DNA of 24,000 bases from Pyrinomonadaceae bacterium. GTDB lineage: Bacteria; Acidobacteriota; Blastocatellia; Pyrinomonadales; Pyrinomonadaceae. A program made the translations under genes and the position numbers. The notes beneath the pieces are model-generated. The model was given only the letters and a program-made list of their open reading frames with translations. It was not told where the DNA came from and did no database searches. The stretch lies in the NCBI GenBank assembly GCA_963700165.1, contig OY969475.1, positions 2,489,969-2,513,968 of the forward strand, in the 5' to 3' direction. How positions within the stretch are numbered: position 1 is the stretch's first letter; every line of letters starts with the position of its first letter. Below are positions 6,687 to 23,574 of the stretch, in pieces.

Positions 6687-8699
6687 ATGGCGGAACCAGA
6701 GCGCAAACTCGGCCCCTACACACTCGTCAGCAAGATCGGGCGCGGCGCTTTCGGCGTCGTCTGGCTCGCCGAAAAACGCTCCTCCATCGCCACTACCCGC
6801 TTCGCTCTCAAACTCCCACGCGACGAAGACATAGACCTGGACGCCTTCAAACACGAAGCCGCCATCTGGCTACAGGCCAGCGGACACCCGAACGTCGTCC
6901 CCATGATCGAGGCGGACATTTACGATGAGCAGGTTGTCATCGTCAGCGAGTACGTGACGGACGGGTCATTGGCCTCATGGCTCAAAGGGCACGGAGGCCG
7001 CGCGCCTTCGATTGAAGCGGCCACAGAGTTGATGGACGGCGTGCTGGCCGGACTCTCTCACCTGCATGAGCGGCATATCATTCACCGCGACCTCAAGCCT
7101 GACAACATCCTCTTGCAAAGAGAGACGCCGCGCCTCGCCGATTTCGGCATCGCGCGCTTGCTCAAATCCGGCTCGTACAGCACGAACGTCAGCGGGACGC
7201 TGGCTTATATGGCTCCCGAAGCCTTTGACGGAAAGCGTAACGAGCAGACGGACGTGTGGTCTGCGGGCGTCATCTTCTATCAACTGCTGGCGGGACGCTT
7301 GCCTTACGACCAGAGCGATACTGTCTCGTTCGTCGGCGCGATTATGCGACACGACCCGCCGCCATTGCCGGAGACTGTGCCCGAAGTCTTGCGACAGATA
7401 GTGATGAAGGCTTTAGAGCGAGAGGCTGCGAAGCGTTATGCGACGGCGAAGGAGATGCGAAGAGATTTGATTGAGGCCGAGCGGCTGCTGTGGTTGAAAG
7501 CGCGCGAAGGGCGAGAAGCCCTGCCCGTACCGGTCAAAGACCCGCAAGCCACGCTCGTGCTTCCTCCCGCAGAGGATAGGAAAGCGCAGACCAAGCCTGC
7601 AATCGAACTACCACCGACTATTCCAGCGACACCTCAGAGAGAGACAGACCGCACGGCGGAAAAGACTATCCCGCAATCTACTTTTCCGCTTGAGTTGCAG
7701 ACCGCCCAGACGATTGAGCCGACGCACGAAGAAGACAGCGCGCCATCGCCTGTCATTCCGGTGAAAGCACGCTCGCGCAGCCGTCTATGGCTGAGACGCA
7801 TCGGTGGCGTTTTGCTTTTGTGGATTCTCATCGCGGCGGGAATTTATCTGTGGATGACGAGAGACTATGCGAAGCAGACGTTAAGCGGACATACGTGGAT
7901 AGTCAATTGTGTTGTCTTCTCGCCCGACGGCAAGTTGCTGGCGAGCGCGAGTACTCAGGAGATAAACTTTTGGGATGCACAAACAGGTGCGTTGAAGCAG
8001 ACCTTAAAGGTCTCTGGCAGCAGGTATGAGTCAATCGCCTTCTCGCCCGACGGGAAATTGCTGGCAAGCGCAAGTACGGACGGGTTACGCTTGTGGGATG
8101 TGCAGACAGGGGAATTGAAGCAGACCTTAACCGGCGCCGGGTTAATATCGGTCGCCTTCTCGCCGGATGGGAAGACGCTGGCGAGCGGGAATGAGGGCTA
8201 CTTCAGGACGGTGAAACTGTGGGATGTGCAAACAGGCGCGTTGAAGCAGACCTTGAACGGGTCTAATCCAGTCGCCTTCTCGCCCGACGGGAAGTTGCTG
8301 GCGTATGTGGGGGAAGGCATCACGCTATGGGATGTGCAAACAGGCGAGTTGAAGCAGACCTTGAGCGGGGGTGAACCATTCGCCTTCTCACCGGACGGGA
8401 AGATGCTGGCGTGCAGGGCTGGCGAGTTGGTGAAAGTGTGGGAGGTGCAAACCGGTGAGCTGAAGCAGACCTTAACTGATTTGAGGATCGCTTCGGTCGC
8501 CTTCTCGCCGGATGGGAAGACGCTGGCGTGCGGGAGTTGGGACAAGACTGTGAAGCTATGGGACATACAATCCATCGCGTTGAAGCAGACCTTGATCGGG
8601 CATCGGTCTCAGGTGAATTCGGTCGCCTTCTCGCCGGACGGGAAAACACTGGCGAGCGCGGGTGAGGACGAGAAAGTGAGGCTGTGGCACGTCGAATAA
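6687..8699 (+). CDS. Hanks-type Ser/Thr protein kinase - single TM helix - seven-blade WD40 repeat protein
   Basis: Kinase motifs GRGAFGVVWLA, ALK, HRDLKPDNILL (7083-7106), DFG, APE. Pro-rich linker. Hydrophobic helix IGGVLLLWILIAAGIYLWM (~7800-7856), preceded by RSRSRLWLRR. Then seven VAFSPDGK-LAS....LWDVQTGELKQTL units. Confidence 0.9.
   Translation: MAEPERKLGPYTLVSKIGRGAFGVVWLAEKRSSIATTRFALKLPRDEDIDLDAFKHEAAIWLQASGHPNVVPMIEADIYDEQVVIVSEYVTDGSLASWLKGHGGRAPSIEAATELMDGVLAGLSHLHERHIIHRDLKPDNILLQRETPRLADFGIARLLKSGSYSTNVSGTLAYMAPEAFDGKRNEQTDVWSAGVIFYQLLAGRLPYDQSDTVSFVGAIMRHDPPPLPETVPEVLRQIVMKALEREAAKRYATAKEMRRDLIEAERLLWLKAREGREALPVPVKDPQATLVLPPAEDRKAQTKPAIELPPTIPATPQRETDRTAEKTIPQSTFPLELQTAQTIEPTHEEDSAPSPVIPVKARSRSRLWLRRIGGVLLLWILIAAGIYLWMTRDYAKQTLSGHTWIVNCVVFSPDGKLLASASTQEINFWDAQTGALKQTLKVSGSRYESIAFSPDGKLLASASTDGLRLWDVQTGELKQTLTGAGLISVAFSPDGKTLASGNEGYFRTVKLWDVQTGALKQTLNGSNPVAFSPDGKLLAYVGEGITLWDVQTGELKQTLSGGEPFAFSPDGKMLACRAGELVKVWEVQTGELKQTLTDLRIASVAFSPDGKTLACGSWDKTVKLWDIQSIALKQTLIGHRSQVNSVAFSPDGKTLASAGEDEKVRLWHVE
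7881..8696 (+). repeat. Intragenic WD40 repeat array with high internal DNA conservation (seven units of 35-42 codons)
   Basis: gtcgccttctcgcc(c/g)ga(c/t)gggaag..ctggcg recurs seven times, and tgggatgtgca(a/g)acagg.g.gttgaagcagacctt recurs five to six times. Differences and indels fall in the segments between these blocks. Confidence 0.85.
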
Positions 8700-8874: not shown

Positions 8875-9951
8875 TCACATATTTTGTGTCTCCGTGTCCG
8901 TCTCTTTGATTCTCTCTTCCAGCTCGGCAACTTTCCGGCGCAGCTCTTTGACCTCTTCGCGCAGTTGGGGCAGGCGATTCATGTGTGCGTTGAGTCGTTT
9001 GTAATCTTCTAAGGGCTGCACGGGGATGCCCCACCAGACTCCCGCGCGCACGATCTTACCGGGCAAGATGCCCGCCTTTGAGCCTATGATCGCGCCCGAT
9101 TGCACGCGCGCGTGATCGCCCATCCCGACCTGCCCGCCGATGATGGCATCGTCTTCAATCACTGTGCTGCCGGAGATGCCCGTCTGCGATGCGATGACGA
9201 CGCGCTGGCCGATCTGCACGTTGTGCGCGATTTGCACGAGGTTGTCTATCTTGGCCGCGCGACCGATGCGCGTCTCTCCGAGCGCGCCACGATCAATACA
9301 CGTCGCGGCTCCAATCTCTACATCGTCTTCGATGATGACTGTGCCAATCTGCGGAAACTTGTGGCGAAAATTATTTTCATCGGGCACGTAGCCGAAACCG
9401 TCTGCTCCGATGACCACGCCCGCATGCAGAATCACACGCTCTCCCACAGAGACGCCTTCATACAGGACGACGTTCGGATGGATGATGCAATCGCGCCCGA
9501 TGCTCACGTCGTCTCCGACACACGCTCCATGATAAAGCTGTGTTCCCTCGCCTACATTCGCGCGCTCGCCGATTGAGACATGCGCGCCGATGTAAACGTC
9601 TTCGCAGACTTGCGCGCTGGCGGCGATGATGGCGGTCGGATGAATCGAAGCAGGCAATCTTTTCGGCGGATGCAAAATCTCTGCGATTAAAGCGAAGGCG
9701 AGTTTCGGGCGCGCAACACGAATCAAGCATTTGCCTTCCAACTCGGGAGAAGCTTCCGGCACGATCAGGCACGCAGCGTGACTGTCAAGAGCGTTTTCCA
9801 GCATCTTCGCATCTTCAACGAAAGCGATTTCGTTTTCCGACGCTCTTTCAATGCTTGCCACGCCTCTGATGACAATGCTGCCATCGCCCGCAACGCTCCC
9901 GCCAACATGCGCCGCCAGTTCAGCCACCGTTTTCTCTTTGTGTGCGCTCAT
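8875..9951 (-). CDS. lpxD: UDP-3-O-acylglucosamine N-acyltransferase
   Basis: N-terminal LpxD-type domain (LAAHVGG...I.GVASIE.A...EIAFVED), a long left-handed beta-helix of hexapeptide repeats, GADGFGY motif, C-terminal helical tail. Lies 21 nt downstream of lpxA. Confidence 0.9.
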   Translation of the reverse strand: MSAHKEKTVAELAAHVGGSVAGDGSIVIRGVASIERASENEIAFVEDAKMLENALDSHAACLIVPEASPELEGKCLIRVARPKLAFALIAEILHPPKRLPASIHPTAIIAASAQVCEDVYIGAHVSIGERANVGEGTQLYHGACVGDDVSIGRDCIIHPNVVLYEGVSVGERVILHAGVVIGADGFGYVPDENNFRHKFPQIGTVIIEDDVEIGAATCIDRGALGETRIGRAAKIDNLVQIAHNVQIGQRVVIASQTGISGSTVIEDDAIIGGQVGMGDHARVQSGAIIGSKAGILPGKIVRAGVWWGIPVQPLEDYKRLNAHMNRLPQLREEVKELRRKVAELEERIKETDTETQNM

Positions 9952-9972: not shown

Positions 9973-10800
9973 TCAACCGAAAGATTCAGCCTGTCCGGCC
10001 ATTGCTTCCTCCGTAGCACCTTGCTGAAGTTTTCGGGCGCGTGTAAATCCGCGTCTGGATGCTTTGATAAATTTGAACAGATGCTGAACGTGCTCGTCCT
10101 CCGATTGCTCCATCTCTGTCAGAGCATCTTCCAGAGGCAAGGCCGAGCGAAACAGAAGCTGATAAGCTCGCTTCAAATTGCGTCGCGCTTCAGAGGAAAA
10201 GCCTGCGCGCCTCAAGCCCACAGTGTTCAAGCCGCGCACGCGCGCAGGGTTGCCGTCCGTGATAAAGAACGGCAGCACGTCCTGCACTATCTTCGACTTG
10301 CCGCCGACCATCGCATAACGTCCCATCCGCACGAACTGGTGCGCGCCCGCATTGTTCGAGAGAAAGACGTGGTCTTCGACACAGATATGTCCCGCCAGCG
10401 CAGCCCCGTTGGCAAAGATGTTGTCGTCTCCGACCTCGCAGTTATGCGCGAGGTGAACGCCGATCATCAAAAAATTGCGGCTGCCGACGCGCGTCACTTC
10501 CCCTTCGCCGCTCGCGCGATGAATCGTCACGTACTCCCGAATCAAATTGTCATCGCCGATTACTAAGCCGCTCCGCTCGTCCTTAAACTTCACATCCTGC
10601 GGCTCGCCGCCGACCACCGCGTGCTCGTAAATACGATTGCGCTTTCCCAAAGTGGTGAAGCGTTTGATGACGGCATGCGCGGCGATGTCGCAGCCTTCAC
10701 CGATGGTCACGTCGTCTTCGATGACGGCGTAAGCCCCGACGCGCACGTCTGCCGCGAGACGCGCTTGCGGGCTGATGATGGCTGTCGGATGAAGACTCAT
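9973..10800 (-). CDS. lpxA: Acyl-ACP--UDP-N-acetylglucosamine O-acyltransferase
   Basis: Collinear with E. coli LpxA from memory: HPTAII, hexapeptide repeats, VTIHRA, VGS.N.LM...H.AH.C.VG, HQF...G..AMVGG, GLN..GLRR.GFS.E, AY.LLFRS. Confidence 0.9.
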   Translation of the reverse strand: MSLHPTAIISPQARLAADVRVGAYAVIEDDVTIGEGCDIAAHAVIKRFTTLGKRNRIYEHAVVGGEPQDVKFKDERSGLVIGDDNLIREYVTIHRASGEGEVTRVGSRNFLMIGVHLAHNCEVGDDNIFANGAALAGHICVEDHVFLSNNAGAHQFVRMGRYAMVGGKSKIVQDVLPFFITDGNPARVRGLNTVGLRRAGFSSEARRNLKRAYQLLFRSALPLEDALTEMEQSEDEHVQHLFKFIKASRRGFTRARKLQQGATEEAMAGQAESFG

Positions 10801-10995: not shown

Positions 10996-13755
10996 TCAAT
11001 TGCCCAAGAATTTTTGTTGCTCCTGCGGTGTCAGTGGCTGCCGCGTCTGGGGACGCTTTCTGGCTAGTTCAAGCAGGTCATCTATAGAATCTGGCAGGTC
11101 AGTGGGATCAGTGGTTCTCCAGACGCGCGCCGATTTATCCGCGCCCCCGGTGACCATAAAATCACCTTTGGGGCTGAAGGCGACGCTGTATATCCAGTTC
11201 TTGTGTCCGCGAAATTCGCTTAGCACTGTCCATACTTTATCCGGCGTTTGCCTCCATATCCGCGCATTGTAATCCCAACATGCTGTCGCGATGTCATCTT
11301 TAACGGGGCTGAATGCTGCGTCATACACGATATGCGGGTGATTCAAGAAGTGTTCCTGCTCCTTACCCGTCTCTAAGTACCAGACGCGCGCCGTCCTGTC
11401 GCCACTCGCGGTGACGACGAGCTTGCTATCTTGACTGACCCCCGCGCCATACACTGAAGCGGTATGCCCGTTCAATCTTAATTCAGGCTTCCATGTGCCG
11501 CCGACCTGCCATACCAATACCACGCTACTCTGTCCCGTTGTAATAATGTGCTTGCCGTCAGGGCTGAAGTTCACATCGAAGACTGCGCCGGTATGTCCTT
11601 TCAGTTCCATGGGACGGGCGTCGCCCGCTGGCGGCGATGATGGCGGCGTTCCCGGCGGTTGCTGTGTGCCTTCTTGTGGCGGAGGCTGCGCGCCTCCTTG
11701 TGGCGGGGGTGCTGTCTTAACTCCCTGCAAGACGGCTTCCTGCTCCCACGTTTCAACCTTCCAGACCTGTGGCGAAGGGTCATCGCTCGTGGTGATTAGA
11801 TAGCTGCTGTCAGGACTGAATGCCGCGCTATAAACCCTCTGGTCTTTTTCCGCCAACTTGCGCAACGGGGTGACTTTTAACAGTGGGAGGGGCTGCCAAT
11901 TGCTGACCTCCCAAACGCGCGCCGTGCTGCCCTCCAAGTTTGCCGCAACCAGATATTTTCCGTCAGGGCTGAACGACACTTTACGCGCGCCTTTTGAATA
12001 TTTGCCGGGATCATCCTGTGGCTGTAGCTCTTTGACGAGAGCGCCTGTTTTCGCATCCCACACCTTGACCGGCTCAGACAGAGCCGCCGTTGCGATCAAT
12101 GTTCCGTCATGATTGAACACAGCGTTTCTCACTTCGCCATTATGCGGTAAGACAAGCTCCGTGTGAGTTTGGAGCAAAGCCGCTTTGAGAGCTTGTCTGG
12201 CTTCATTGGTAGGGCTTTCTTTGACCGCCTCGATAGCCAGGAGCAGGCTCAAGTCAGGATCAGAGGCCACATGCGCGAAGGCATGAGCGGCTATCGCGCG
12301 CGAACGGGATTCCTTGTTGGCGCGGCGAGCCGCTCTCCACTGGTAGATCGCGACGCCCGTTGCTGCGATGGCTATTATCAAGAGCAGCGACAATCCGCTC
12401 ACCTGTTTGCGCAGCCGAAGTGATTCCATCCGTTCGCGCTGGCGCTCGGCCTCTGCCTGTTCCTTCTTGAGCCGTTCCTGCTCTTCGCGCTTGATGCGCT
12501 CCTGCGTTTGCTGCTCCGTATAACGGCGTCGCCAATCGAGGATTGATGCGCCCAACACGTCATGAAAAATCTCGTAGCGCAGATTGTCCGGCTGATCCGG
12601 CGGCGGGGAGACAGAGCGCAGGATACGCACTTCCGGCGAGCCGAGCAGCATCAGGACGCGGCTGGCATCTGCGTCGGGCAGCTCGACATAAGAGGCGAGG
12701 TCTGCGGGCGTGTGCGCGATCTTCATGCCGGAGGGCGTGACCAGATAACGAAACAGGCGCGCGGCGATGTCGCGTTCGCTCTCCGGCAGCTTGTTCATCA
12801 CCGTATCCAGATGCGTCCGCACGATGCTCTGCGCTCCGCCGAGCCGCTGCAAAGTCTCAAGCCGCAGCAGATGTGACCCGGCTGCCATCTCTTCATTCCA
12901 GAGACGCATCAAGACCATTTGTAAGAACGGCGTCTCGATGCGCGAATCTTCGCCGAGATGGTCTGGCAGGCGTGCGCTGCCGCCTTGCCCGTGCCCGGAT
13001 TGTGCGATGGTAACTTTGCCTGTCTTCACCTGTTCGAGCAGGGATTCGACAAGGCTGTCTTCGATAGAGACTTGCGGCTGGCCTTCTTTCAAATTCCGGT
13101 TATAACTGTCGAGCGGTTTGAGCACCGCCTCGCGCCCAGCTTCCATGTCCAGATGTTCCAGCCGCAGCATGTTGCCGAGCAGTCTGGGGATGCGCCCGCG
13201 AAAGCGATCCAGCTTACTCAGGCCGTCATCCCGCAGCGAGAGCAGAAAGTTTGCATCCACTTCCTGACGATTGACGGCTCTGGCAAACTCCGCGTCAAAG
13301 CCTTCGTCCGACTGCGTGGGCGGATGATAAAGACAAAACTCTTCAAACTGATCGAAGAATAAGAAGATGGGGCCGCGCAAGTGCTTGCCGCACCGCAAGA
13401 GGAATTCATCGAGCGGGAGAGCCAGATCAACGTCTACAGCTTTGCCGGTTTTTTCCGTGACGGCGCGCAATATCTCGCGCTTGAGCATCGTCGCAAAGCC
13501 CGCGTCCTGCCATTGCCGGAAGACGACCACTGCGAGCCTCGGCTCGCGTCTCAATTGCGGCACGACGCCCGCCAGCAAGACAGAGCTTTTGCCGACCCCG
13601 CTCGCGCCGTACAGAATCGTCAAAGAGGCCGCGTACAAATTCGAGGCAATGATCTCCTGATCGCGCTCGCGCCCGAAGAAGTAAGCGCGGTCAGCCTCCG
13701 TATACGGTTGCAAACCTTTGTAGGGACAAAAATTTGTGGGCAGCTCGCTAGACAT
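10996..13755 (-). CDS. nSTAND-type P-loop NTPase - coiled coil - hydrophobic helix - WD40 repeat protein (NLR-like)
   Basis: N-terminus CPYKGLQPYTEADRAYFFGRE + LYGASGVGKSSVLLAG (Walker A, 13582-13608) + FLFFDQFEE (Walker B) matches the novel-STAND-NTPase-1 pattern. Charged coiled coil at aa ~410-450. Hydrophobic helix VSGLSLLLIIAIAATGVAIYQW (12340-12402). C-terminal WD40 blades (FSPDGK..., GH...V, WD/VW motifs), with a Pro/Gln-rich insert at 11611-11715. Confidence 0.85.
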   Translation of the reverse strand: MSSELPTNFCPYKGLQPYTEADRAYFFGRERDQEIIASNLYAASLTILYGASGVGKSSVLLAGVVPQLRREPRLAVVVFRQWQDAGFATMLKREILRAVTEKTGKAVDVDLALPLDEFLLRCGKHLRGPIFLFFDQFEEFCLYHPPTQSDEGFDAEFARAVNRQEVDANFLLSLRDDGLSKLDRFRGRIPRLLGNMLRLEHLDMEAGREAVLKPLDSYNRNLKEGQPQVSIEDSLVESLLEQVKTGKVTIAQSGHGQGGSARLPDHLGEDSRIETPFLQMVLMRLWNEEMAAGSHLLRLETLQRLGGAQSIVRTHLDTVMNKLPESERDIAARLFRYLVTPSGMKIAHTPADLASYVELPDADASRVLMLLGSPEVRILRSVSPPPDQPDNLRYEIFHDVLGASILDWRRRYTEQQTQERIKREEQERLKKEQAEAERQRERMESLRLRKQVSGLSLLLIIAIAATGVAIYQWRAARRANKESRSRAIAAHAFAHVASDPDLSLLLAIEAVKESPTNEARQALKAALLQTHTELVLPHNGEVRNAVFNHDGTLIATAALSEPVKVWDAKTGALVKELQPQDDPGKYSKGARKVSFSPDGKYLVAANLEGSTARVWEVSNWQPLPLLKVTPLRKLAEKDQRVYSAAFSPDSSYLITTSDDPSPQVWKVETWEQEAVLQGVKTAPPPQGGAQPPPQEGTQQPPGTPPSSPPAGDARPMELKGHTGAVFDVNFSPDGKHIITTGQSSVVLVWQVGGTWKPELRLNGHTASVYGAGVSQDSKLVVTASGDRTARVWYLETGKEQEHFLNHPHIVYDAAFSPVKDDIATACWDYNARIWRQTPDKVWTVLSEFRGHKNWIYSVAFSPKGDFMVTGGADKSARVWRTTDPTDLPDSIDDLLELARKRPQTRQPLTPQEQQKFLGN

Positions 13756-13895
13756 TCTAGTGTCAGGGAAACGGATATACTAAAATTTCAAAACGCGAAG
13801 GCAGGGCTTTGCGTCTTGAGTTCTTTTTGTCCCTTGAAGGTTTTAATTACTCTCTAACCTAAGTTGCTAGTGATAGATATTTTGCTAGACTTCTT

Positions 13896-14058
13896 AAATT
13901 GCCACTAGCTTCAGCTAGTGGATCGAGGTTTCTCCTAGCCGTCGGCTTTAGCCGAACAATTTAAGCTGAAGCAATAAGGACCAGGATTTATTTGTATTTT
14001 GGCTCAAGCCTGCTTTCTGTTGTGCCATGTCTCCACTAGCTAAAGCTAGTGGCAATTT
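13896..14058. repeat. A/T-rich inverted-repeat element (CCACTAGC family) between the SIR2-like and STAND genes
   Basis: Termini AAATTGCCACTAGCTTCAGCTAGTGG (13896-13921) and CCACTAGCTAAAGCTAGTGGCAATTT (14033-14058) are inverted copies; each is itself a palindrome. The interior has mini-palindromes (GGCTTTAGCC, GCCGTCGGC, GGCTCAAGCC). Confidence 0.7.
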
Positions 14059-14083
14059 ATTAATTCGCAATTTGGGTTATTTT

Positions 14084-15025
14084 CTAAGTGACTTGCTCAC
14101 TCAGCACGCGAACAAACTCGTTGATGTCAACATCGAAAATCTGCACCTTGCGCGCATCCCACAGTTTGGTCTCAAGGTAAGAAGGCTTGAACTGGATAGC
14201 CCATGAGCTTATTTCCTCATCTTCTTCCATGTCCTCCGAATCCCCTCCGGTCGGGAGCGCAGTTCGCAGGTTCTTGAGCACCACTCGCAAATTCCAGTCG
14301 CGCAGCCCGTAACCCAGAAACAGAAAATAGCGCGAGCGGAAATAGCGCATGAACTGCGCGGGCACAGCCGTCTGCCCCGTCATGCGCGAGAGGAAATCCA
14401 CGTAGTCCTCTTCCGTGATGACATAGCTGTCCCACTTCTGCGCCGTGCGATCCACCGTGCCGTGCATCTTGTAGATAACGGAAGTCGTCTTGAGATCAAC
14501 GATGAGCTGGTTAGGCTCCACGACCTGCGGCTCAGCCGCGCCGTGCTTCCACCAGAGGACAGAGGCTTCGACATCCTTCCGGTCGGTCGGGTGAATCACG
14601 AGGTCAAAGGGCAGGCCGAGATTGTTAAAAGCGCGCTCCGTCAAATCGTCATAATTGGTCGTGACGATCAGGAGCGGCGTGTTGCGCGAGGCTTCCGCGA
14701 GATAATTGTGTATCGGGCACGGCTCGAAGTCCTTGTCAAAAACCTCTTTGAGCCGCTCGCGCAGGCGTCGGCGCTTGGTCGTCTCGACAAAGTAAGAGGC
14801 GACTTTGGCGAGGTCTATCGTGTCGCTTTCACTGTCTGCGGGAAAGCTGATTTTCGAGGCGAGAAAGCGCGACAATTCTGCCCCGCTCGGCAGGAAAGGG
14901 CTGTTCATCTCCCACGGTGAGCCGGGCGGCTGGCGCGTCCCGAAATTGACGCCCGCGCCTAAGAAGGGGACGACCTCGCCCCTCTTCAACAGCTCCGCGA
15001 TTTCTCCATACGGTGGATCGTGCAT
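14084..15025 (-). CDS. SIR2-like domain protein (SIR2_2/DHS-like NAD-binding fold); candidate NADase effector
   Basis: VVPFLGAGVN (Rossmann Gly-rich loop), LLIVTTNYDDLTERAF (Asn124, codons 14648-14662), IYKMHGT (His188, codon 14462-14464), VITEEDY, FLFLGYGLRDWN. These match the stand-alone SIR2_2 family pattern. At 313 aa there is no room for a SLOG or other fused domain. Confidence 0.8.
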   Translation of the reverse strand: MHDPPYGEIAELLKRGEVVPFLGAGVNFGTRQPPGSPWEMNSPFLPSGAELSRFLASKISFPADSESDTIDLAKVASYFVETTKRRRLRERLKEVFDKDFEPCPIHNYLAEASRNTPLLIVTTNYDDLTERAFNNLGLPFDLVIHPTDRKDVEASVLWWKHGAAEPQVVEPNQLIVDLKTTSVIYKMHGTVDRTAQKWDSYVITEEDYVDFLSRMTGQTAVPAQFMRYFRSRYFLFLGYGLRDWNLRVVLKNLRTALPTGGDSEDMEEDEEISSWAIQFKPSYLETKLWDARKVQIFDVDINEFVRVLSEQVT

Positions 15026-15224
15026 CAGAACCCTTCAAGCGTTAGTGAGAGTTTCAGGGAAAGAGCGTCCGGTCAAGCGTGGCTCATAAAATTCAGAAAA
15101 GGCATAAGTTAAACGGCAAGAAAAGACTTAACCGTGAAGCCTACAGAGACAGTGAAGCCGGAAAAGATACCAACCAGAGCTTATACGCCTCTCACAAATC
15201 GGTGTCAATAATTATCCCGCTTCG

Positions 15225-15397
15225 GTAGTGGGCCAGTTTCAAACATGGCAAAGAAAAAACAGGTTCCCGCAAAGGCGCAAAGACGCAAAGCAAGCAATCA
15301 AGATAAAGCACCGCTCAACCCCTTTGCGTCTTTGCGCCTTTGCGGGAGGTTCTTTCCTGATGCTGGATGACACTTGAATTTCAAACTGACCCACTAC
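15225..15397 (-). mobile_element. MITE-like fold-back element, copy C (inverted relative to copies A and B)
   Basis: Termini GTAGTGGGCCAGTTTCAAA ... TTTCAAACTGACCCACTAC. The interior ggcaaagaaaaaacaggttcccgcaaaggcgcaaagacgcaaagcaagca is the reverse complement of the copy B segment tgcttgctttgcgtctttgcgcctttgcgggaacctgttttttcttttcc. Confidence 0.65.
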
Positions 15398-15550
15398 CCC
15401 CGCGTCCTGCACGCCCTGACCAAACGCTATCTCCTTCTGACACCTTGCCTTAAACTGCTATAGACACTATCATGTGATGCCGCAAAGCTTTGCGCCTTTG
15501 ATGGGCGCGGGCGATAGCGGAGAGTTAGAGCTTACATCAAGTATTTAGGA

Positions 15551-17569
15551 GTGCGCAGAAGTGTGCGCTCTGCCTTCATTAAGGAGATTGTATCTTTGTT
15601 TAGCGATCAATTTCGCCGAGGCGAATCAAACAAGGGAAGATTCAGCGGGGTCAAAAGCTCCAAGCTGATCTCGAACCTTTCGGATGTGGCGTGGAAGGCG
15701 TTTCAGTCCATCAACCAGCGTCTGCCGGAAGGCGAGGCGATTCGACCGAAGTGGGCAGCAGAGCCACTTCTGAAATCTTATGAGCGCACTGCGCCGCCAT
15801 TGGGCTTCCCGCGCGAGACGGACTCTTTGTGCCCGCGCTGCGTCACGGAAGTCAGGAACGCAGTCATCACCGGCGAGACGACGCTTGAGACCTTGATGCA
15901 CCAGCATCCGGGCGAAATCAAGGCGCAGATTCTGGAAGAGAACGGACAGGTCATCATGCGCAAGACCTGCCCGAAGCATGGCGAGTTTACGGACGTGATG
16001 GCGACCGACCCGAAATTTTTGGAGCGCATCGAATCTCTCTTTTATGGACGCGACTTTCGCTCTGCCGAAGACTCGCACGTTCACAAGCACGGCACATCAA
16101 ACATCAAGTTCGGACGCGGCGCGGTGTTGACGGTTGACCTGACGAATCGCTGCAACATGATGTGCAACCCGTGCTTCATGGATGCCAATCAGGTCGGCTA
16201 TGTGCACGAGCCTACGTTTGAAGACACGAAGGCGATTTTAGACAACGCCGTCTCCTTCAAACCAAAGCGACAGATCATCATTCTCTTTTCCGGCGGCGAG
16301 CCGACGCTCTCGCCTTACTTTCTTGACGCGGTCGCTTATGCCAAAAAAGTCGGATTTTACAGAATCCTAGCGGCCACCAACGGCATCCGCTATGCCGAAG
16401 ACATAGAGTTCTGCAAAGCCGCTAAAGCTGCCGGGCAGCATGGCGTCTACCTGCAATTCGATGGCGTCTCTGAAGAGAAGAACAAGCATCGCGGCGTCGG
16501 CAACCTGTTTGATGTCAAGCTGCGCGCGATTGAAAATTTGGCGAGCGTCGGCATCAAGGTCACGCTCGTGACGACCATCGTCAACACGATTAACAATGAT
16601 GCTATCGGGCAGATCGTCGAGTTCGCGGCGCAGAACATAGACAAAGTTCAGACCATTGCGTTCCAGCCGGTCTCGTTCACGGGTCGCGATGAAGACGTGC
16701 CTGACGACATTCGCATGCAGCAGCGTTACACGCTCGCGGGCATGACGCATGACCTCAAAGACCAGCTCGACGGCAAATTGCAGCCACTGCGCGATTGGTT
16801 TCCGCTCTCTTCTTACTCTGCGTTTACGAGCGTGATGGACATGTTGCAGGGCGCGGACGCGCCGTGGGGCTGGTCTAGTTGTAACTGCCATCCGAACTGC
16901 GGCATCTTTACGTTGATCGTCGTCAACCGCCAGACGGGCGAGATGAATTCGCTCTTCGATTTTTTCAACTACGAGCAGTTCATGAAAGACGTGGCGGTGA
17001 TTACGGACACGGCGCGCGGCAAAAAACTTTCTTACGCGCAGCTTGGCATGGCTATCATGCGCAACTATGACGCGGCGCGTGCGCCCGAAGGCTTTCCCAT
17101 CTCGCAGATCGTCAATCTCTTCAAGCCGTCTTCGACCAACTCAAGCTCTGATCGCAACGACCGCATGAAGGCGCAAGGGACAACTGCCGACTCGAACGAC
17201 ATGTGGCGCGTGCTCTGCGTCGAGGGCATGTGGTTTCAGGATTTGTTCAATTACGATTTCCGCCGCACAGAGATGTGCGTGATTCCCTACGGCACACAGG
17301 AAGGCGAAATCTCTTTCTGCGCTTACAACACAGGAGTCGGCTGGCGACAGATTATCGAGAACATGCACAAGACCGCCAGCCTCTCCGAATGGTATGAAGA
17401 GCATGGACGCCATGCTGTCTATGCCAAAGGCAAAGCCGTGCCCGGCATCTCCAAAAAGCATTCGCTCTCGCTGCCCATCGTCCATCAGATTCTGGCGGAA
17501 GATAGAGGCGAGGACACAAGGCCGGTGACGCCTTATCTGATTGAAGAAGACGAGAAGATCACTGTCTGA
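15551..17569 (+). CDS. Large radical SAM enzyme, COG1964-type (Tes / GDGT-MAS tetraether-synthase-like)
   Basis: N-terminal Cys pairs CPRC...(~40 aa)...CPKHGEF. Canonical CX3CX2C motif CNMMCNPC (16151-16174). GGEPTL. Further Cys motifs SSCNCHPNCG and MCVIPYG...ISFCAYN. 672 aa. The start is uncertain: GTG at 15551, or in-frame TTG at 15596 with an AGGAG 9 nt upstream. Confidence 0.7.
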   Translation: MRRSVRSAFIKEIVSLFSDQFRRGESNKGRFSGVKSSKLISNLSDVAWKAFQSINQRLPEGEAIRPKWAAEPLLKSYERTAPPLGFPRETDSLCPRCVTEVRNAVITGETTLETLMHQHPGEIKAQILEENGQVIMRKTCPKHGEFTDVMATDPKFLERIESLFYGRDFRSAEDSHVHKHGTSNIKFGRGAVLTVDLTNRCNMMCNPCFMDANQVGYVHEPTFEDTKAILDNAVSFKPKRQIIILFSGGEPTLSPYFLDAVAYAKKVGFYRILAATNGIRYAEDIEFCKAAKAAGQHGVYLQFDGVSEEKNKHRGVGNLFDVKLRAIENLASVGIKVTLVTTIVNTINNDAIGQIVEFAAQNIDKVQTIAFQPVSFTGRDEDVPDDIRMQQRYTLAGMTHDLKDQLDGKLQPLRDWFPLSSYSAFTSVMDMLQGADAPWGWSSCNCHPNCGIFTLIVVNRQTGEMNSLFDFFNYEQFMKDVAVITDTARGKKLSYAQLGMAIMRNYDAARAPEGFPISQIVNLFKPSSTNSSSDRNDRMKAQGTTADSNDMWRVLCVEGMWFQDLFNYDFRRTEMCVIPYGTQEGEISFCAYNTGVGWRQIIENMHKTASLSEWYEEHGRHAVYAKGKAVPGISKKHSLSLPIVHQILAEDRGEDTRPVTPYLIEEDEKITV

Positions 17570-17585
17570 TTAGAACATTCCTGTT

Positions 17586-17678
17586 CTTTGCGTCTTGAGT
17601 CTTTCTTTGTTTGCGCCACCAGCGTGCAACGTTGCTGGTTCTCGCTGGTGGCGCAAAGATAAGAGATAAGACGCAAAG
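17586..17678. repeat. CTTTGCG-type palindromic element; probable terminator of the radical SAM gene
   Basis: Arms ctttgcgtctt...gcgccaccagcg (17586-17624) and cgctggtggcgc...aagacgcaaag (17643-17678), with a 12-bp perfect inner stem GCGCCACCAGCG/CGCTGGTGGCGC. Starts 17 nt after the stop codon and is followed by ggttttg. Confidence 0.55.
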
Positions 17679-17885
17679 GGTTTTGAATGAATCAGCAGTT
17701 GAGTTTTTAAAAATTTCTAAGCTGGTAAATATCCGCGCTGATTTGTTTTATGCAGTAAAGTTCCTTCTCTGGCCCTGACTGCACGTTATCACAGCCTGCA
17801 AATTAACCCGACACGCACTCAAAAGGCTGCCTACACATTCTGAGGTTTCCTTAGAATATAACCCCATAGAAAGAGTTTTTAGATA

Positions 17886-18758
17886 ATGAGAAAAGCACTA
17901 TCCGTATGTTTTTTAGCCTTATTGGTTTTGAATTTGACATTGCCCCTTTCCGTGACACGGGCGCAGGAGGCGGCAAAGGCTTCGCAACAGGATCAAACAA
18001 TTTCCCCGACCTTGAAAAATGAAGATGTCCTGACAATGCTTAAAACAGGTCTTTCGCCTGAGATCGTGATTGCTAAAATCAAAGCTTCTGCCTGCGAGTT
18101 CAACACGACCCCTGCGGCCTTGCAGGAACTCAAGACAGCCAATGTGCCTGAAGCGGTGATTATGGCTATGGTACAGGCTCCGGTCGGCGTGGCCGGAAAT
18201 TCTGTTGCGAGTTCCAATGACGCAGCAGGCAGCGTTGAAGTGAGAATCCCTGACGGCACGCCTCTGGAAGTCGAACTCATGTCGAACCTCTCTTCGGCGA
18301 CAGCCAAAGAGGGTGACATCATTGACTTCACGGTCGTCTCTCCGGTTGTCGTCAACGGAGTCACGGTGATTGAAAAGGGCGCGCCTGCGAAAGCCCGTGT
18401 GGCGGGCGTCAAGAAAGCAGGCTACTGGGGCAAAGCCGGAAAGATCGGCTGGACGATGCAGGAAGTGCTATTGGTTGACGGCAATCGCACGCCTCTGCGT
18501 ATGGAAAAGAAGTTGACGGGCGACAGCAAGGGCGGCACAGTGGCGACAGCTACGATTGTGACGGCTGTGGTCTTCTGGCCTGCTGCTCCGTTCTGGGGAT
18601 TTAAGAAGGGCAAGAATGCTGTGTTCCCTGCCGGCAAGCGTTTTGAAGCCTTCGTGCATGGCGATGTCAAGGCGAAAGGTACGCCCGTCAGGATGACAGC
18701 CATGCAACCCGTCACCGAGCAGACAAAAGCTCAGACCACGGAAACAGCCAAACCTTAA
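17886..18758 (+). CDS. Hypothetical secreted/membrane-anchored protein
   Basis: Signal-peptide-like N-terminus MRKALSVCFLALLVLNLTLPLSVTRAQEA. Hydrophobic segment TVATATIVTAVVFWPAAPFWGF near the C-terminus. I recognise no family. Confidence 0.6.
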   Translation: MRKALSVCFLALLVLNLTLPLSVTRAQEAAKASQQDQTISPTLKNEDVLTMLKTGLSPEIVIAKIKASACEFNTTPAALQELKTANVPEAVIMAMVQAPVGVAGNSVASSNDAAGSVEVRIPDGTPLEVELMSNLSSATAKEGDIIDFTVVSPVVVNGVTVIEKGAPAKARVAGVKKAGYWGKAGKIGWTMQEVLLVDGNRTPLRMEKKLTGDSKGGTVATATIVTAVVFWPAAPFWGFKKGKNAVFPAGKRFEAFVHGDVKAKGTPVRMTAMQPVTEQTKAQTTETAKP

Positions 18759-18908
18759 GAGCGAGGCTATTGTTTCGCTCTAAGTGCCGAGCGCGTCTCT
18801 GCAAGCTTGAATCCGGCGATGTATTTATCAATAATGCTTGCGATTCAAGTTTGCAGAGAAGCTTTACTAAAGAGAGCTTAGTCTTTTTAAAACATTCCGT
18901 TCGACCAT

Positions 18909-19919
18909 TTGCTCCTGATGAAACTATCACAGAAAATCAGCCGTCTAGCCACGACCGCAAAGCTTTTCGTTTCCGGTCTGCCGAAAAACTCTGTTGGCTC
19001 GATTGATGTCACCAATCGCTGCAACCTGCGCTGCGAGCATTGCTACTTTTTCGCCGAAGATCATAAGGGCGAAAAGGAACTCACGAACGACCAGTGGATT
19101 GAAAAGCTCGAAGCGATGAAGGCTGCGGGACATCCGATGCTGCTCTGCACCTGGGTCGGCGGCGAGCCGATGGTGCGCCGCTCGCTGATCGAAATCGGGC
19201 GCAAATATTTTAAGCACAATACCATCGTCACCAACGGCACGATGGAATTGCCGGACTGGCAGGATTGCACCTATGTCATCTCGATAGACGGCACGGAAGA
19301 AGCCTTTGCGCGGATGCGCGCTCCCGGCCTGTACCAGAAGATTAAGCAGAATGTCATAGACCATCCCGAACTGAGGATTCAAATCTCCTGCGTGCTGACG
19401 AGCATCACCAAAGATTGCGTCGAAGAGCTGGTCAAAGAATGGGGCACGATTGCGCGCAGCGGTGTGATTTTTGATTTCTTTACGCCCGTCACGAATTTGG
19501 ACGAAGCATTGTGGCTCGATTGGGAAACGCGCGACCGCTTGATAGACCAGATACTCGCTTTAAAGAAGAAATATCCGGGCGTTATCAACATGCTGGATTC
19601 GACGCTTGATTTGATGAGATCGAAGAACGCCAAGCGCGTCACGGACAACTGCGAGTTTGCCAAAAAAGCTTTCGCGCTCAACCCGACCGGAAAGCAGAAA
19701 GGCAAATGTATGATGGGCGATAACGCGGACTGTGACCGTTGCGGCTGCGTCGTTCCCTTTCACATGGCAACCCTCAGCAGCCGCCGCTTGATGCTCAAAG
19801 AGACCATCAAAAAACAGTTCGCTCCGAAAAGACCTGCCTCCATGTCTCCGCAAAAACCCGTCCAGATTGCCGCGCGAACTTCATGGCAAAGCTCCGCCAG
19901 ACCGGACGACGCATTTTAA
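18909..19919 (+). CDS. Radical SAM protein with a C-terminal Cys-rich (SPASM/twitch-like) motif
   Basis: IDVTNRCNLRCEHCYF (CX3CX2C, 19020-19043), WVGGEPM, C-terminal CMMGDNADCDRCGC. TTG at 18909 per the ORF track; the first ATG is at 18918. Confidence 0.75.
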   Translation: MLLMKLSQKISRLATTAKLFVSGLPKNSVGSIDVTNRCNLRCEHCYFFAEDHKGEKELTNDQWIEKLEAMKAAGHPMLLCTWVGGEPMVRRSLIEIGRKYFKHNTIVTNGTMELPDWQDCTYVISIDGTEEAFARMRAPGLYQKIKQNVIDHPELRIQISCVLTSITKDCVEELVKEWGTIARSGVIFDFFTPVTNLDEALWLDWETRDRLIDQILALKKKYPGVINMLDSTLDLMRSKNAKRVTDNCEFAKKAFALNPTGKQKGKCMMGDNADCDRCGCVVPFHMATLSSRRLMLKETIKKQFAPKRPASMSPQKPVQIAARTSWQSSARPDDAF

Positions 19920-19921
19920 GA

Positions 19922-20009
19922 AATTAAAAATTAAAAATGTAAAGTGCAAAATTGAAGACAGCATCTCTCGCCTCTTCAATTTTGCACTTTACATTTTTAA
20001 TTTTTAATT
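19922..20009. repeat. A/T-rich perfect 36-bp inverted repeat (hairpin) between convergent genes
   Basis: The left arm 19922-19957 is the exact reverse complement of the right arm 19974-20009, with a 16-nt loop. It starts 3 nt after the radical SAM stop codon and contains the stop codon of the minus-strand HisKA ORF. Confidence 0.85.
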
Positions 20010-20332
20010 GTTCCGTCTGCTTCCTGTTCGTCATCGTAGCCTTGTGCGGGAATCGGGCGCTGCACGTTGCGGAGGCGGGCGACGGTGTCTCTGATGCGGG
20101 CGGCAAGCTGCTCTATGGTTTCGACGCGCCGACGCGCCGAATCGCTCAGTTCATCGCGCAGCAGTAGTTGCGCCTGACCGATCACGCCCGTCAGAGGGTT
20201 GTTGATTTCGTGGCGGACATGCGCTACCAAATCCGCAATTTCCGTGAGCTTTGCTTCATGCTCGGCGATTAATTTGCGCAAGTCTTCTTCCGTTGTTCTA
20301 TCATTCCGGGCGAGCGGGTTGTCTGTGCTCAT
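19997..20332 (-). CDS. Stand-alone HisKA (dimerisation/phospho-acceptor) domain protein; truncated or orphan histidine-kinase fragment
   Basis: H-box VAHVRHEINNPLTGVIGQAQLLL. No N/G1/F/G2 ATPase boxes before the stop. The start is uncertain: ATGs at 20332, 20380 and 20566. The track's TTG start at 20605 overlaps the tRNA and is rejected. Confidence 0.45.
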   Translation of the reverse strand: MSTDNPLARNDRTTEEDLRKLIAEHEAKLTEIADLVAHVRHEINNPLTGVIGQAQLLLRDELSDSARRRVETIEQLAARIRDTVARLRNVQRPIPAQGYDDEQEADGTIKN

Positions 20333-20510
20333 CTTGGCTTTTGAAGATTCCTTTGTCGTAAATGATACCGGCGGAGACATATGAACGACGAAAGGCGCAT
20401 CTGGTCGGCCTCTCACCTTTGGGGCAGAGCAGCTTGAAAGCTCTGGCTTGTATTGTGCGTCGGATACGTCGTCTTGGGCAAGCTTAATTTTCACGTCTCG
20501 CGCACGGCGG

Positions 20511-20540
20511 TTGACAATTAGGTGTGCGGGCACGTAAATT
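20511..20540 (+). promoter_or_regulatory. Sigma70-like promoter candidate for tRNA-Gln
   Basis: TTGACA (20511-20516), then a 17-18 nt spacer, then GTAAAT/TAAATT (20534-20540). Lies ~50 nt upstream of the tRNA 5' end. Confidence 0.35.
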
Positions 20541-20590
20541 TTTAAGCCTGTCGTCCGAGAGGCCATCCCACTCTGGATCAGAAAATTTAA

Positions 20591-20661
20591 TGCCGGGTCG
20601 TCCAATGGTAGGACACATGACTCTGGATCATGTTATCGGGGTTCGAGTCCCTGCCCGGCAG
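20591..20661 (+). tRNA. tRNA-Gln (anticodon CUG); CCA not encoded
   Basis: Manual cloverleaf: acceptor TGCCGGG/CCCGGCA (U1-A72) with G73 discriminator; D arm GTCC-AATGGTA-GGAC; anticodon arm CATGA-CTCTGGA-TCATG; variable loop TTAT; T arm CGGGG-TTCGAGT-CCCTG. Confidence 0.85.
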
Positions 20662-20715
20662 ATACCTTTCTTCTGAACCGATCTACGCCCTCATAACCAA
20701 CCTGTACTAACAAGG

Positions 20716-21135
20716 GTGATGAAGAAGCGATGTGCAAGATGCGGCAAGAATCGAGACGAGAAATTCTTTAATCGTCGAAGAGCCTCCGGCCTACAACCAT
20801 ATTGCCGGGACTGCCGGAGAACTAGAGCCAGAGCGCACTACGCAGCTAACCGAGAATATTATCTTGAAAAGGCTGGCCGCCATCGTTGCAAGCTAAAGAC
20901 TATAATTCACGAGGCTAAATCTTTCCCTTGTGCTGATTGCGGTGGTAATTACCCCTATTACGTAATGGATTTTGATCACAGAGCGGGCAAAGAATTCAAT
21001 CTGGGAGGCGCGCATACACGGAAAAGCATTCAGGCGGTTTTGAACGAGATCGAAAAATGTGATGTTGTCTGTTCTAATTGCCACCGCGAGCGATCTTTCC
21101 AAAGATTGAACAAGTCTAAGCTGATAGTGAAATAA
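20716..21135 (+). CDS. HNH (His-Me finger) endonuclease-family protein with an N-terminal Cys4 zinc ribbon
   Basis: CARCG...YCRDC, then C.DCGG..PYYVMDFDHR...EIEKCDVVCSNCHR, the pattern of small free-standing HNH nucleases. GTG at 20716 is followed immediately by ATG at 20719. Confidence 0.7.
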   Translation: MMKKRCARCGKNRDEKFFNRRRASGLQPYCRDCRRTRARAHYAANREYYLEKAGRHRCKLKTIIHEAKSFPCADCGGNYPYYVMDFDHRAGKEFNLGGAHTRKSIQAVLNEIEKCDVVCSNCHRERSFQRLNKSKLIVK

Positions 21136-22443: not shown

Positions 22444-23574
22444 ATGTTCAAAAAAGTCTTGATTCTTTCAGCCTCCGCCGGAGCCGGGCACGTCCGCGCA
22501 GCCGAAGCCGTCGAGCGCGCCTTCGCGCAAATGCACGCCGCGCAAGAGGTGCGTCATATAGATGTCTTACAGTATACCAACAAGCTCTTTCGCCATCTCT
22601 ACTCCAAAGCTTATTTGGAGATGGTCAACAAGATGCCGGAAGTTTTGGGCTGGCTCTACGACCAGCTTGACAAGCCGTGGCAGAACGAGCGCAGACGCCT
22701 CGCGCTCGACAAGCTTAACACGCGCCCGCTCGTCAAGTTTCTGGGAAACTACCAGCCGGACATTATCGTCTGCACGCACTTTCTTCCGGCGGAAATCATC
22801 TCATGGCTCAAGGCGAAGGAGCGCATCGCCTCAAGGCAAGCCATCGTCGTGACGGATTTCGACGTGCATGCGCTCTGGCTCTGTCATCACTACGAGCGAT
22901 ATTTTGTCGCGCTCGATGAAACCAGAGTCCACATGGAAAAGCTAGGCATCCCCAACGCCAAGCTGACCGTCACGGGCATTCCCATAGACCCGCTCTTCGC
23001 GTTGCAGAAAGACAAACGCGAGATGCGCGTCAAGCATGGTTTGCAAACGGACGTGATGACCATTCTGGTTTCTGCCGGGGGCTTCGGCGTCGGGCCGGTC
23101 GAGCATATTTTGGAATCGCTCTCAGGCATGCGCCACCCCGCGCAGGTCGTAGCCCTCTGCGGGCGCAATCAGGAACTCAAAAGCCGCCTTGACAAGCTGG
23201 CGGCAAGATTATCACACGCAGGCAACATCAATATTAAAACCGTCGGCTACACGACCGAGATGGACGAGCTGATGTCTGCTTCAGATATTCTTTTAGGAAA
23301 ACCCGGCGGGCTGACCACCTCAGAAGCTCTCGCTAAAGAACTGGTCTTCGTCATCGTCAACCCCATCCCCGGACAGGAAGAACGCAACTCGGATCACCTG
23401 CTCGAAGAAGGCGTCGCCATCCGCTGCAACAACCTTCCGGCGCTGGCCTACAAGATAGACCGCCTCTTGGACGACCCCGCGCGCTTCGCACACATGCAAG
23501 CCCAAGCCCGCCGCCTCGCACGCCCCCACGCCGCGCACACGATTGTAGAGAGCCTTTTGAGCATCAATGAATAA
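22444..23574 (+). CDS. GT28-family glycosyltransferase, MGDG-synthase/UgtP-like (diacylglycerol glycosyltransferase)
   Basis: N-terminus VLILSASAGAGHVRAAEAV... plus PDIIVCTHFLP, VVTDFDVHALW, YFVA..E, GIPI.P.F are collinear with B. subtilis UgtP / the MGDG_synth domain from memory. The C-terminal half is GT-B (GKPGGLTTSEA). Confidence 0.75.
   Translation: MFKKVLILSASAGAGHVRAAEAVERAFAQMHAAQEVRHIDVLQYTNKLFRHLYSKAYLEMVNKMPEVLGWLYDQLDKPWQNERRRLALDKLNTRPLVKFLGNYQPDIIVCTHFLPAEIISWLKAKERIASRQAIVVTDFDVHALWLCHHYERYFVALDETRVHMEKLGIPNAKLTVTGIPIDPLFALQKDKREMRVKHGLQTDVMTILVSAGGFGVGPVEHILESLSGMRHPAQVVALCGRNQELKSRLDKLAARLSHAGNINIKTVGYTTEMDELMSASDILLGKPGGLTTSEALAKELVFVIVNPIPGQEERNSDHLLEEGVAIRCNNLPALAYKIDRLLDDPARFAHMQAQARRLARPHAAHTIVESLLSINE

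Follow-up and report, generated by a model that had tools for sequence, protein, structure and literature searches.

A 24,000-nucleotide (nt) stretch of DNA from a soil acidobacterium of the Pyrinomonadaceae (Acidobacteriota subdivision 4, Blastocatellia), referred to below as the window and used for all coordinates, encodes an enzyme of the radical S-adenosylmethionine (SAM) class, ORF1, which our analysis places as a variant in the family of the archaeal Tes/GDGT-MAS enzymes. By analogy with these enzymes, we consider it moderately probable that ORF1 couples iso-branched chains tail-to-tail, giving membrane-spanning lipids of the iso-diabolic-acid type. ORF1 is the first of three co-oriented open reading frames (ORFs), at 15551-17569 (672 amino acids, aa), 17886-18758 (290 aa) and 18909-19919 (336 aa), all found as reported in a preliminary description of the window made from its letters alone. 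Homologues number more than 8000 for ORF1, about 1000 for ORF2 and about 510 clusters for ORF3; the three are therefore real genes and not chance ORFs. Some Pyrinomonadaceae have ORF3 in addition, an accessory radical SAM enzyme that gene linkage ties to membrane lipids and Tes-family enzymes.

[quoted passage not shown] The chain-joining enzyme of Acidobacteria has not yet been identified: Mss is absent, and bacterial Tes homologues are still candidates. The locus provides a defined, clonable candidate from subdivision 4, a lineage rich in iso-diabolic acid ether. The core idea, family and hypothesis alike, is already published; the window adds a subdivision 4 member to it, which is an incremental gain.

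The preliminary description had read ORF1 as a Tes/GDGT-MAS (COG1964-type) radical SAM enzyme with a zinc-ribbon-like motif, and matches in Pfam, NCBIfam and the Protein Data Bank (PDB) agree on this. Pfam returned Zn_ribbon_HMPTM (2e-14) and Radical_SAM. Against the solved structure of GDGT-MAS (PDB 7TOL), query residues 123-618 align with positions 36-515 of the chain over ~480 residues (E=5.2e-67), and the top NCBIfam model is that of Tes, NF045702, with 316.3 bits over profile positions 2-483 of 486. All motifs quoted earlier for the protein are present, namely C94-P-R-C97, C140-P-K-H143-G, C201-x3-C205-x2-C208 and C444-N-C446-H-P-N-C450-G (residue numbers of ORF1 follow the 672-aa frame throughout). 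The best matches do not lie in a peptide-maturase family but in Tes/GDGT-MAS, which rules out ORF1 as a peptide maturase. We regard its membership in the Tes superfamily as virtually certain. The score on NF045702, for its part, lies below the equivalog cut-off of that model (450 bits), and the 209.3 bits obtained with the TrsS model NF045646 are below the cut-off of 490 bits.

GDGT-MAS holds four metallocentres (PMC9433317, PMC13459092). Besides its auxiliary clusters it has the radical SAM cluster (PMC9433317, PMC13459092). The rubredoxin-like Fe is bound by C9, C12, C33 and H36 (C9-X2-C12-X20-C33-X2-H36; PMC9433317), and the N-terminal auxiliary [4Fe-4S] cluster by C73, C77, C80 and a His (CPxxCGxCxxH; PMC9433317, PMC13459092). 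The C-terminal [4Fe-4S] cluster has a labile Met439, and its cluster sulfide has been proposed to trap the first substrate radical (PMC9433317, PMC13459092); the conserved Tyr459 lies near it (PMC9433317). For residue mapping, the MJ0619 sequence was rebuilt from the printed alignment and aligned with ORF1 and 82 related bacterial loci (n=83). The equivalent of C9/C12/C33/H36 is a rubredoxin-like zinc-ribbon site formed by C94, C97, C140 and H143 (15830..15979, + strand), four residues that are invariant in alignment A1; C140 and H143, corresponding to C33 and H36, are kept in 81 of the 83 sequences, the remaining two being gaps. The radical SAM motif C201-x3-C205-x2-C208 (16151..16174, +) is likewise invariant in alignment A1. 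Towards the C-terminus, C450, M560, C576, Y580 and C590 (16898..17320, +) align with C338, M439, C455, Y459 and C470 of GDGT-MAS; C450 is kept in all 83 sequences and each of the other four in 82. We infer that C450, C576 and C590 (C338, C455 and C470) serve as the three Cys ligands of the C-terminal cluster, because they are the conserved C-terminal cysteines.

The departure from the archaeal plan lies in the N-terminal [4Fe-4S] cluster. C73, C77 and C80 of GDGT-MAS fall on gaps in ORF1 and in all 82 related loci (83/83), and the segment that stands in place of the motif (16064..16120, +) is free of Cys. The His of the motif is retained: His83 of GDGT-MAS, H180 in ORF1, is kept in 82 of the 83 sequences. 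Outside the ORF1 clade, CPxxCGxCxxH is present in 15 of 16 representatives, and also in MJ0619 and TrsS. In a rough neighbour-joining tree of the Tes family, made without bootstraps and with TrsS as outgroup, the sequences that have no N-terminal cluster form a single clade inside the family; the alignment further gives the ORF1 clade extensions of ~75 aa at the N-terminus and ~50 aa at the C-terminus. Judged by its residues, the acidobacterial clade is a Tes version with three metallocentres, a point that bears on enzymology and on how search models are designed. Since the N-terminal auxiliary cluster is lost in the clade, electron delivery must differ from that of the archaeal enzyme. ORF1 is hence a Tes variant and not a strict member, because it misses the N-terminal cluster and the curated threshold while keeping all residues of the coupling chemistry.

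What such an enzyme might do in Acidobacteria is suggested by their lipids. Iso-diabolic acid is reported from acidobacterial subdivisions 1, 3, 4 and 6 and is abundant in subdivision 4 as a glycerol ether (PMC13274423). Sahonero-Canavesi et al. did not find an Mss homologue in Acidobacteria (PMC13159169), and another synthase is therefore needed there. The preliminary description stated that a membrane-spanning lipid role had been proposed for bacterial homologues, and the literature bears this out: Zeng et al. (2022) proposed bacterial Tes homologues as the makers of brGDGT-type/iso-diabolic-acid membrane-spanning lipids (PMC8941075), and Halamka et al. (2022) built a pathway upon that proposal (PMC10087280). 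Iso-branched fatty-acid tails and phytanyl tails have an identical terminus (PMC8941075).

The distribution of the family was scanned with one genome per species; at least 593 genomes have an ORF1 relative, and labels were tallied for the best 80. Among these 80, 68 are labelled Acidobacteriota, under the names Pyrinomonadaceae, Blastocatellia, Terriglobia, Terriglobales, Acidobacteriaceae, Terracidiphilus, Bryobacterales and Thermoanaerobaculia, and they include subdivisions 4 (Pyrinomonadaceae, Blastocatellia), 1 (Acidobacteriaceae, Terriglobales) and 3 (Bryobacterales). The other 12 are labelled Latescibacterota, Gemmatimonadota, Myxococcota, proteobacterial groups and Bifidobacteriaceae. 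Wherever the homologues with 84-93% identity to ORF1 have a taxon label, it reads Pyrinomonadaceae or Acidobacteriota, and Terriglobus roseus DSM 18391 has a member of the ORF1 clade with 44% identity. Some metagenome-assembled genomes (MAGs) of Blastocatellia and Pyrinomonadaceae (loci L059 and L081) carry a second tes-like subtype, 52-54% identical, that groups with the versions of subdivisions 1 and 3; there are therefore two tes-like subtypes within subdivision 4.

We thus propose a coupling role for ORF1 on the basis of its full-length homology, the kept catalytic residues (81-83 of 83), the acidobacterial distribution and the shared iso terminus. The mechanism is proposed by homology; homology and conservation of the catalytic residues are observed, whereas substrate, product and an electron supply that does without the N-terminal cluster are those we infer. 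The radical SAM cluster of ORF1 would cleave SAM, and the resulting 5'-deoxyadenosyl radical would strip one hydrogen off a terminal methyl, that of an iso-branched chain (iso-C15-type) in a membrane glycerolipid. The carbon radical would then be held on a sulfide of the C-terminal [4Fe-4S] cluster until another chain has been turned into a radical by means of a second SAM and attacks the first, so that two SAM would be spent per bond. The tail-to-tail C-C bond that results would be the one found in iso-diabolic acid, which spans the membrane in Acidobacteria and forms the core of brGDGTs.

Several observations weigh against this role. Two of them, the missing N-terminal cysteines and the score below the equivalog cut-off, have been given above, and three others concern the surroundings and are given below (the loci that have no ORF3, the lack of a family-wide neighbour and the folds nearest to ORF3). 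The clade also occurs in MAGs labelled Latescibacterota, Gemmatimonadota and Myxococcota. Pyrinomonadaceae are aerobes. Mss was active in Escherichia coli solely under anaerobic conditions (PMC13159169). As of 2025-2026, membrane-spanning lipid synthesis by a bacterial Tes homologue is without experimental proof (PMC11868695, PMC13459092). Sahonero-Canavesi et al., applying stringent criteria to 14 acidobacterial genomes of iso-diabolic-acid producers, recovered Tes homologues from only 3 and suggested an alternative pathway (PMC13159169). Stringent searches with archaeal queries may under-count the ORF1 clade, which could explain the 3/14 result.

Part of this evidence would also fit an ORF1 that belongs to the Tes superfamily and carries out another reaction, on another lipid or on a cofactor, as its paralogue TrsS may do. 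Such a reading, which we hold to be rather unlikely, accommodates the sub-threshold score, the loss of the [Fe4S4]N cluster with the gain of both extensions, the separate clade in the rough tree, the missing experimental proof of bacterial Tes function (PMC11868695) and also the 3/14 mismatch among producers (PMC13159169). It accounts less well for the fact that the C-C coupling residues, i.e. the C-terminal cluster ligands and the counterparts of Met439 and Tyr459, are all kept, that Tes is the nearest curated family by ~100 bits, and that the distribution is centred on a phylum known for iso-diabolic acid. Tail-to-tail coupling by ORF1 remains the reading that we prefer.

Compared with archaeal Tes/GDGT-MAS (MJ0619, PDB 7TOL/7TOM, NF045702), ORF1 agrees in its rubredoxin-like site and radical SAM core and in having the C-terminal ligands, the labile Met and the Tyr, and by analogy the chemistry is likely to be the same, the joining of two terminal sp3 carbons of isopropyl-ended chains. 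It differs by having no N-terminal [4Fe-4S] Cys, by its two terminal extensions and, given its bacterial host, by its presumed substrate, a fatty-acyl/alkyl glycerolipid instead of archaeol. The bacterial Tes homologues advanced for brGDGT (PMC8941075, PMC10087280) embody the same idea and probably belong to the same protein group as ORF1; the homologue of Edaphobacter aggregans, for example, is given as 32% identical to M. acetivorans Tes (e-61). The top matches listed there (Koribacter, Solibacter; 40-42% identity) may represent a different subtype from ORF1. In the portions consulted, neither Zeng et al. nor Halamka et al. set apart a clade without the N-terminal cluster or describe an ORF3 partner, and neither the uniform cluster loss in the ORF1 clade nor the ORF3 partner family was encountered in the literature consulted. 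Mss (Thermotoga maritima Tmari_0825, T. ethanolicus WP_129545148.1), likewise of the radical SAM class, fills the overall role proposed here for ORF1, and has been experimentally shown to make diabolic acids in bacteria (PMC13159169); unlike the ORF1 clade, it is reported to be absent from Acidobacteria (PMC13159169).

With regard to the genes around ORF1, the preliminary description had proposed a three-gene cassette, of which a link between ORF1 and ORF3 survives and a conserved unit does not. Downstream genes were counted in the 14 related genome loci of Pyrinomonadaceae whose downstream sequence extends for at least 2.5 kb, and upstream genes in the 22 loci with sufficient upstream sequence. 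ORF3 is present beside the tes-like gene in 2 of the 14 loci and missing from 12, and an ORF2-like gene is found in 7. De novo clustering of the neighbours in 82 loci yielded zero genes conserved family-wide (beyond family-level synteny), lipid genes included. The gene between the two radical SAM genes is not constant either: in L001, where ORF1 and ORF3 have 90% and 88% identical counterparts, it is unrelated to ORF2, and in L002 two small genes occupy its place. The order tes-like, ORF2-like, ORF3 was found again in ~10 contigs of one sub-lineage. Because ORF2 and ORF3 are often missing, the intervening gene varies and no neighbour is kept family-wide, the three genes are not a conserved functional cassette.

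One may go further and take ORF1 as the sole lipid enzyme of the locus, with ORF2 and ORF3 as unrelated neighbours that owe their position to shared ancestry within a sub-lineage. This we regard as possible, though on the unlikely side. The counts just given and the variable or absent intervening gene speak for it, and the related loci are phylogenetically close, so that adjacency counts are not independent. The link between tes-like genes and ORF3, however, holds while the spacer changes from 6 nt to 2.3 kb: in a metagenome search, every close ORF3 homologue (at least 72% identity, readable upstream) lies 3' of a same-strand tes-like gene, at a distance of 6-2317 nt. The link also extends beyond close relatives, which argues against mere neighbourhood. 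In L099, a divergent, 44%-identical branch of the ORF3 family stands directly 3' of an 82%-identical tes-like gene, and in L105 (6685-9233) the gene for a true TrsS (538 bits), the Tes paralogue, has an ORF3-family gene of 35% identity 60 nt upstream of it. The pair in L105 may reflect an old partnership between both radical SAM families. The surroundings in L105 look archaeal, with STT3 and URO-D genes. We thus keep the ORF1-ORF3 association, and judged by this gene linkage ORF3 probably acts on the same lipids as ORF1, on their tail or head group.

ORF3 most likely starts at ATG 18918, giving a 333-aa radical SAM enzyme (18918..19919, +) of an uncharacterised family. It had been described as radical SAM/SPASM-like; the first part stands, with C38-x3-C42-x2-C45 and a Pfam Radical_SAM match, and for the second Pfam gave zero SPASM matches, next to a C-terminus with five conserved Cys (C248, C267, C275, C278 and C280) and a twitch enzyme as nearest fold. 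Within the ~510 clusters of the family, conserved cysteines comprise C38/C42/C45 of the radical SAM motif and C80, C248, C267, C275, C278 and C280 over a range of 35-100% identity, C280 being a His in the most distant homologue (that of L105). No NCBIfam model comes near its cut-off, the best scoring at most 53 bits against cut-offs of 300-650. The AlphaFold2 (AF2) model has a predicted local distance difference test (pLDDT) value of 82, and its Foldseek matches are generic radical SAM folds only, headed by the twitch enzyme SkfB (template modelling (TM) score 0.59), SuiB and anSME at TM 0.5-0.6.

The last of the points that count against a lipid role is that peptide maturases head the structural matches of ORF3, the similarity being generic. 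It raises the reading that ORF3 matures a ribosomally synthesised and post-translationally modified peptide (RiPP) and that the locus makes a modified peptide. By sequence as by fold, the top PDB matches are indeed maturases of the SkfB, SuiB, CteB and YydG type; the similarity is weak, as the TM scores and the NCBIfam bits above indicate, a conserved small precursor ORF beside ORF3 was not found, and ORF3 abuts the tes-like gene directly in several loci. Moreover, peptidase and RiPP transporter genes are absent nearby, and distant homologues sit in lipid clusters. We consider a RiPP maturase very improbable.

A closer genomic parallel is offered by the tes/mss-gms clusters of Acidobacteria and Planctomycetes (PMC11214058), in which a second non-B12 SPASM/twitch radical SAM enzyme is encoded beside tes, the same genomic logic as that of ORF1 and ORF3. 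Gms, at least 400 aa long and closely homologous to AhbD (e-79), carries at its N-terminus a COG4001 lipid-binding extension of 100 aa (Garcia et al. 2024, PMC11214058). ORF3 itself is not Gms: it has 333 aa, its match to TIGR04545, the AhbD model, is confined to residues 33-116 and amounts to 34.7 bits (cut-off 500), and it has no N-terminal extension, the position of the radical SAM motif at residue 38 leaving no space for one of the Gms type. A truncated Tes was likewise rejected, since hhalign against ORF1 aligns the radical SAM core only.

More distant relatives of ORF3 occur in clusters for the synthesis and transport of phospholipids. Homologues of 43-50% identity adjoin genes for phosphatidylinositol phosphate (PIP)-synthase-like, flippase-like, HpnN-like RND, MlaC and OEP proteins. 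In L003 (2597-13908) and on a JGI contig, the cluster contains an HpnN-like RND transporter, a flippase-like protein, a PIP-synthase-like CDP-alcohol transferase and a Gfo/Idh/MocA oxidoreductase, and further the ORF3-like radical SAM gene, OEP, MlaC and two proteins without a known role; it appears to be an uncharacterised system for inositol-lipid synthesis and export. In L101 the ORF3 homologue adjoins a PIP-synthase-phosphodiesterase fusion, and in L095 and L098 the contexts are not lipid-related. From these contexts one could argue that ORF3 modifies a polar head group (cyclitol or sugar) and not the tail, like twitch-type radical SAM enzymes acting on sugars or cyclitols. The PIP-synthase-like transferases and the inositol-dehydrogenase-like Gfo/Idh/MocA gene next to the 43-50% homologues would fit, as would Foldseek matches to the sugar- or nucleotide-acting BlsE, viperin and DesII. 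We nevertheless find this reading unlikely: in Pyrinomonadaceae the partner is a homologue of a tail-coupling enzyme and not a head-group gene, and the structural matches are generic (TM 0.5-0.6).

Equally tentative is the idea that in some Pyrinomonadaceae ORF1 and ORF3 form a two-enzyme module, in which ORF3 would further modify the iso-diabolic-acid chain by radical chemistry; we put it forward as a doubtful but attractive possibility. If true, ORF3 would introduce an additional branch or a ring, make an H-type cross-link or alter the head group, and would be the first member of a new bacterial family for membrane-lipid tailoring, represented also in the inositol-phospholipid/lipid-transport clusters of other phyla. 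For the tailoring of bacterial lipids, the ORF3 family offers a lead of its own.

The gene between the two enzymes, ORF2 (17886..18758, +), encodes a secreted 290-aa protein whose signal peptide, noted in the preliminary description, is a typical Sec signal (MRKALSVCFLALLVLNLTLPLSVTRA/QE). Searches of ORF2 against Pfam and NCBIfam gave zero family matches, and its ~1000 homologues are all unnamed and without a Pfam domain, with Pyrinomonadaceae or Acidobacteriota as the labelled taxa. The AF2 model (pLDDT 70.6) divides the protein into the signal peptide, a small helical domain (~45-97) and a barrel with a hydrophobic helical hairpin (~115-267), and Foldseek matched the C-terminal domains of VirB10, ComB10 and CagY (E ~1e-5, TM normalised to the target 0.40-0.48). 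The C-terminal half is hence predicted to adopt a VirB10/TrbI-like outer-membrane beta-barrel fold whose hydrophobic hairpin resembles an antenna, although the neighbourhood has no type IV secretion genes. According to this model, ORF2 looks like a lineage-specific secreted envelope protein with nothing to connect it to lipid chemistry, and it probably sits between ORF1 and ORF3 by chance, outside the chemistry.

Concerning the gene models, the ORF1 frame is open from GTG 15551 (672 aa), and the enzyme probably starts at TTG 15596, giving 657 aa (15596..17569, +), because AAGGAG lies 7 nt upstream of this codon, 657 aa is the modal length of the homologues, and matches begin at residue 16. Several fragmentary database representatives, for instance, align from query residue 16 onward. 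Scans of 15000-20700 for promoters and terminators gave counts no higher than in shuffled sequence and are therefore uninformative on operon structure. A search of the long intergenic regions with Rfam found no riboswitch, its sole match being a tRNA-Gln.

The preliminary description had also seen a membrane-lipid theme in the wider neighbourhood. The genes on which it rested are there: a glycosyltransferase family 28 (GT28)/MGDG-synthase-like gene at 22444-23574, 2.5 kb downstream, and lpxB (5296-6501), lpxD (8875-9951) and lpxA (9973-10800) upstream. We dropped the theme itself. In related Pyrinomonadaceae loci GT28 was not found near the tes-like gene, apart from one distant match of 28% identity ~8 kb away in L044, and in the window it lies beyond the tRNA-Gln gene. 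The lpx genes reflect family-level synteny, lpxB, lpxD and lpxA standing upstream of the tes-like gene in 15 of 22 Pyrinomonadaceae loci.

Directly downstream of ORF3, on the opposite strand, lies a gene for a small protein consisting of a HisKA (dimerisation and histidine phosphotransfer, DHp) domain only (19997..20332, -; Pfam HisKA 1.1e-12), and such a gene is present in 7 of the 14 downstream regions. The listed ORF of 202 aa reaches 20605, where its 5' end overlaps the tRNA-Gln(CTG) gene (20591-20661, +); the gene is therefore probably ~111 aa long (~19997-20332). Its homologue in L001 has 105 aa, and the HisKA-only protein has no ATPase domain. Further on, 20716-21135 (+) encodes a 139-aa Cys-rich protein with several CxxC pairs and without a Pfam family, which PADLOC matches faintly (E=9e-4) to a type IV methyl-directed restriction enzyme; in L030 the HisKA gene is followed by a homologue with 49% identity.

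The region 10996-15025 (-), which separates lpxA from the tes-like gene, holds a SIR2_2 gene (14084-15025), whose top PADLOC match is the SIR2 part of ThsA, and a gene for an nSTAND1-WD40 NTPase (10996-13755). The pair occupies the same spot in L004, L015 and, weakly, L012 and is absent from L001, L008, L010 and L023; the pattern suggests that defence-type genes have been inserted here variably. The window thus contains, amid its housekeeping lpx genes, several NTPase genes of an immune-like or signalling type. Among the others, a TIR-NB-ARC-TPR STAND protein is encoded at 2623-5034 (+), its TIR part matching ThsB (3e-34), and a Ser/Thr-kinase-WD40 protein matching PD-T4-6/mad6 kinases at 6687-8699 (+), inserted between lpxB and lpxD.

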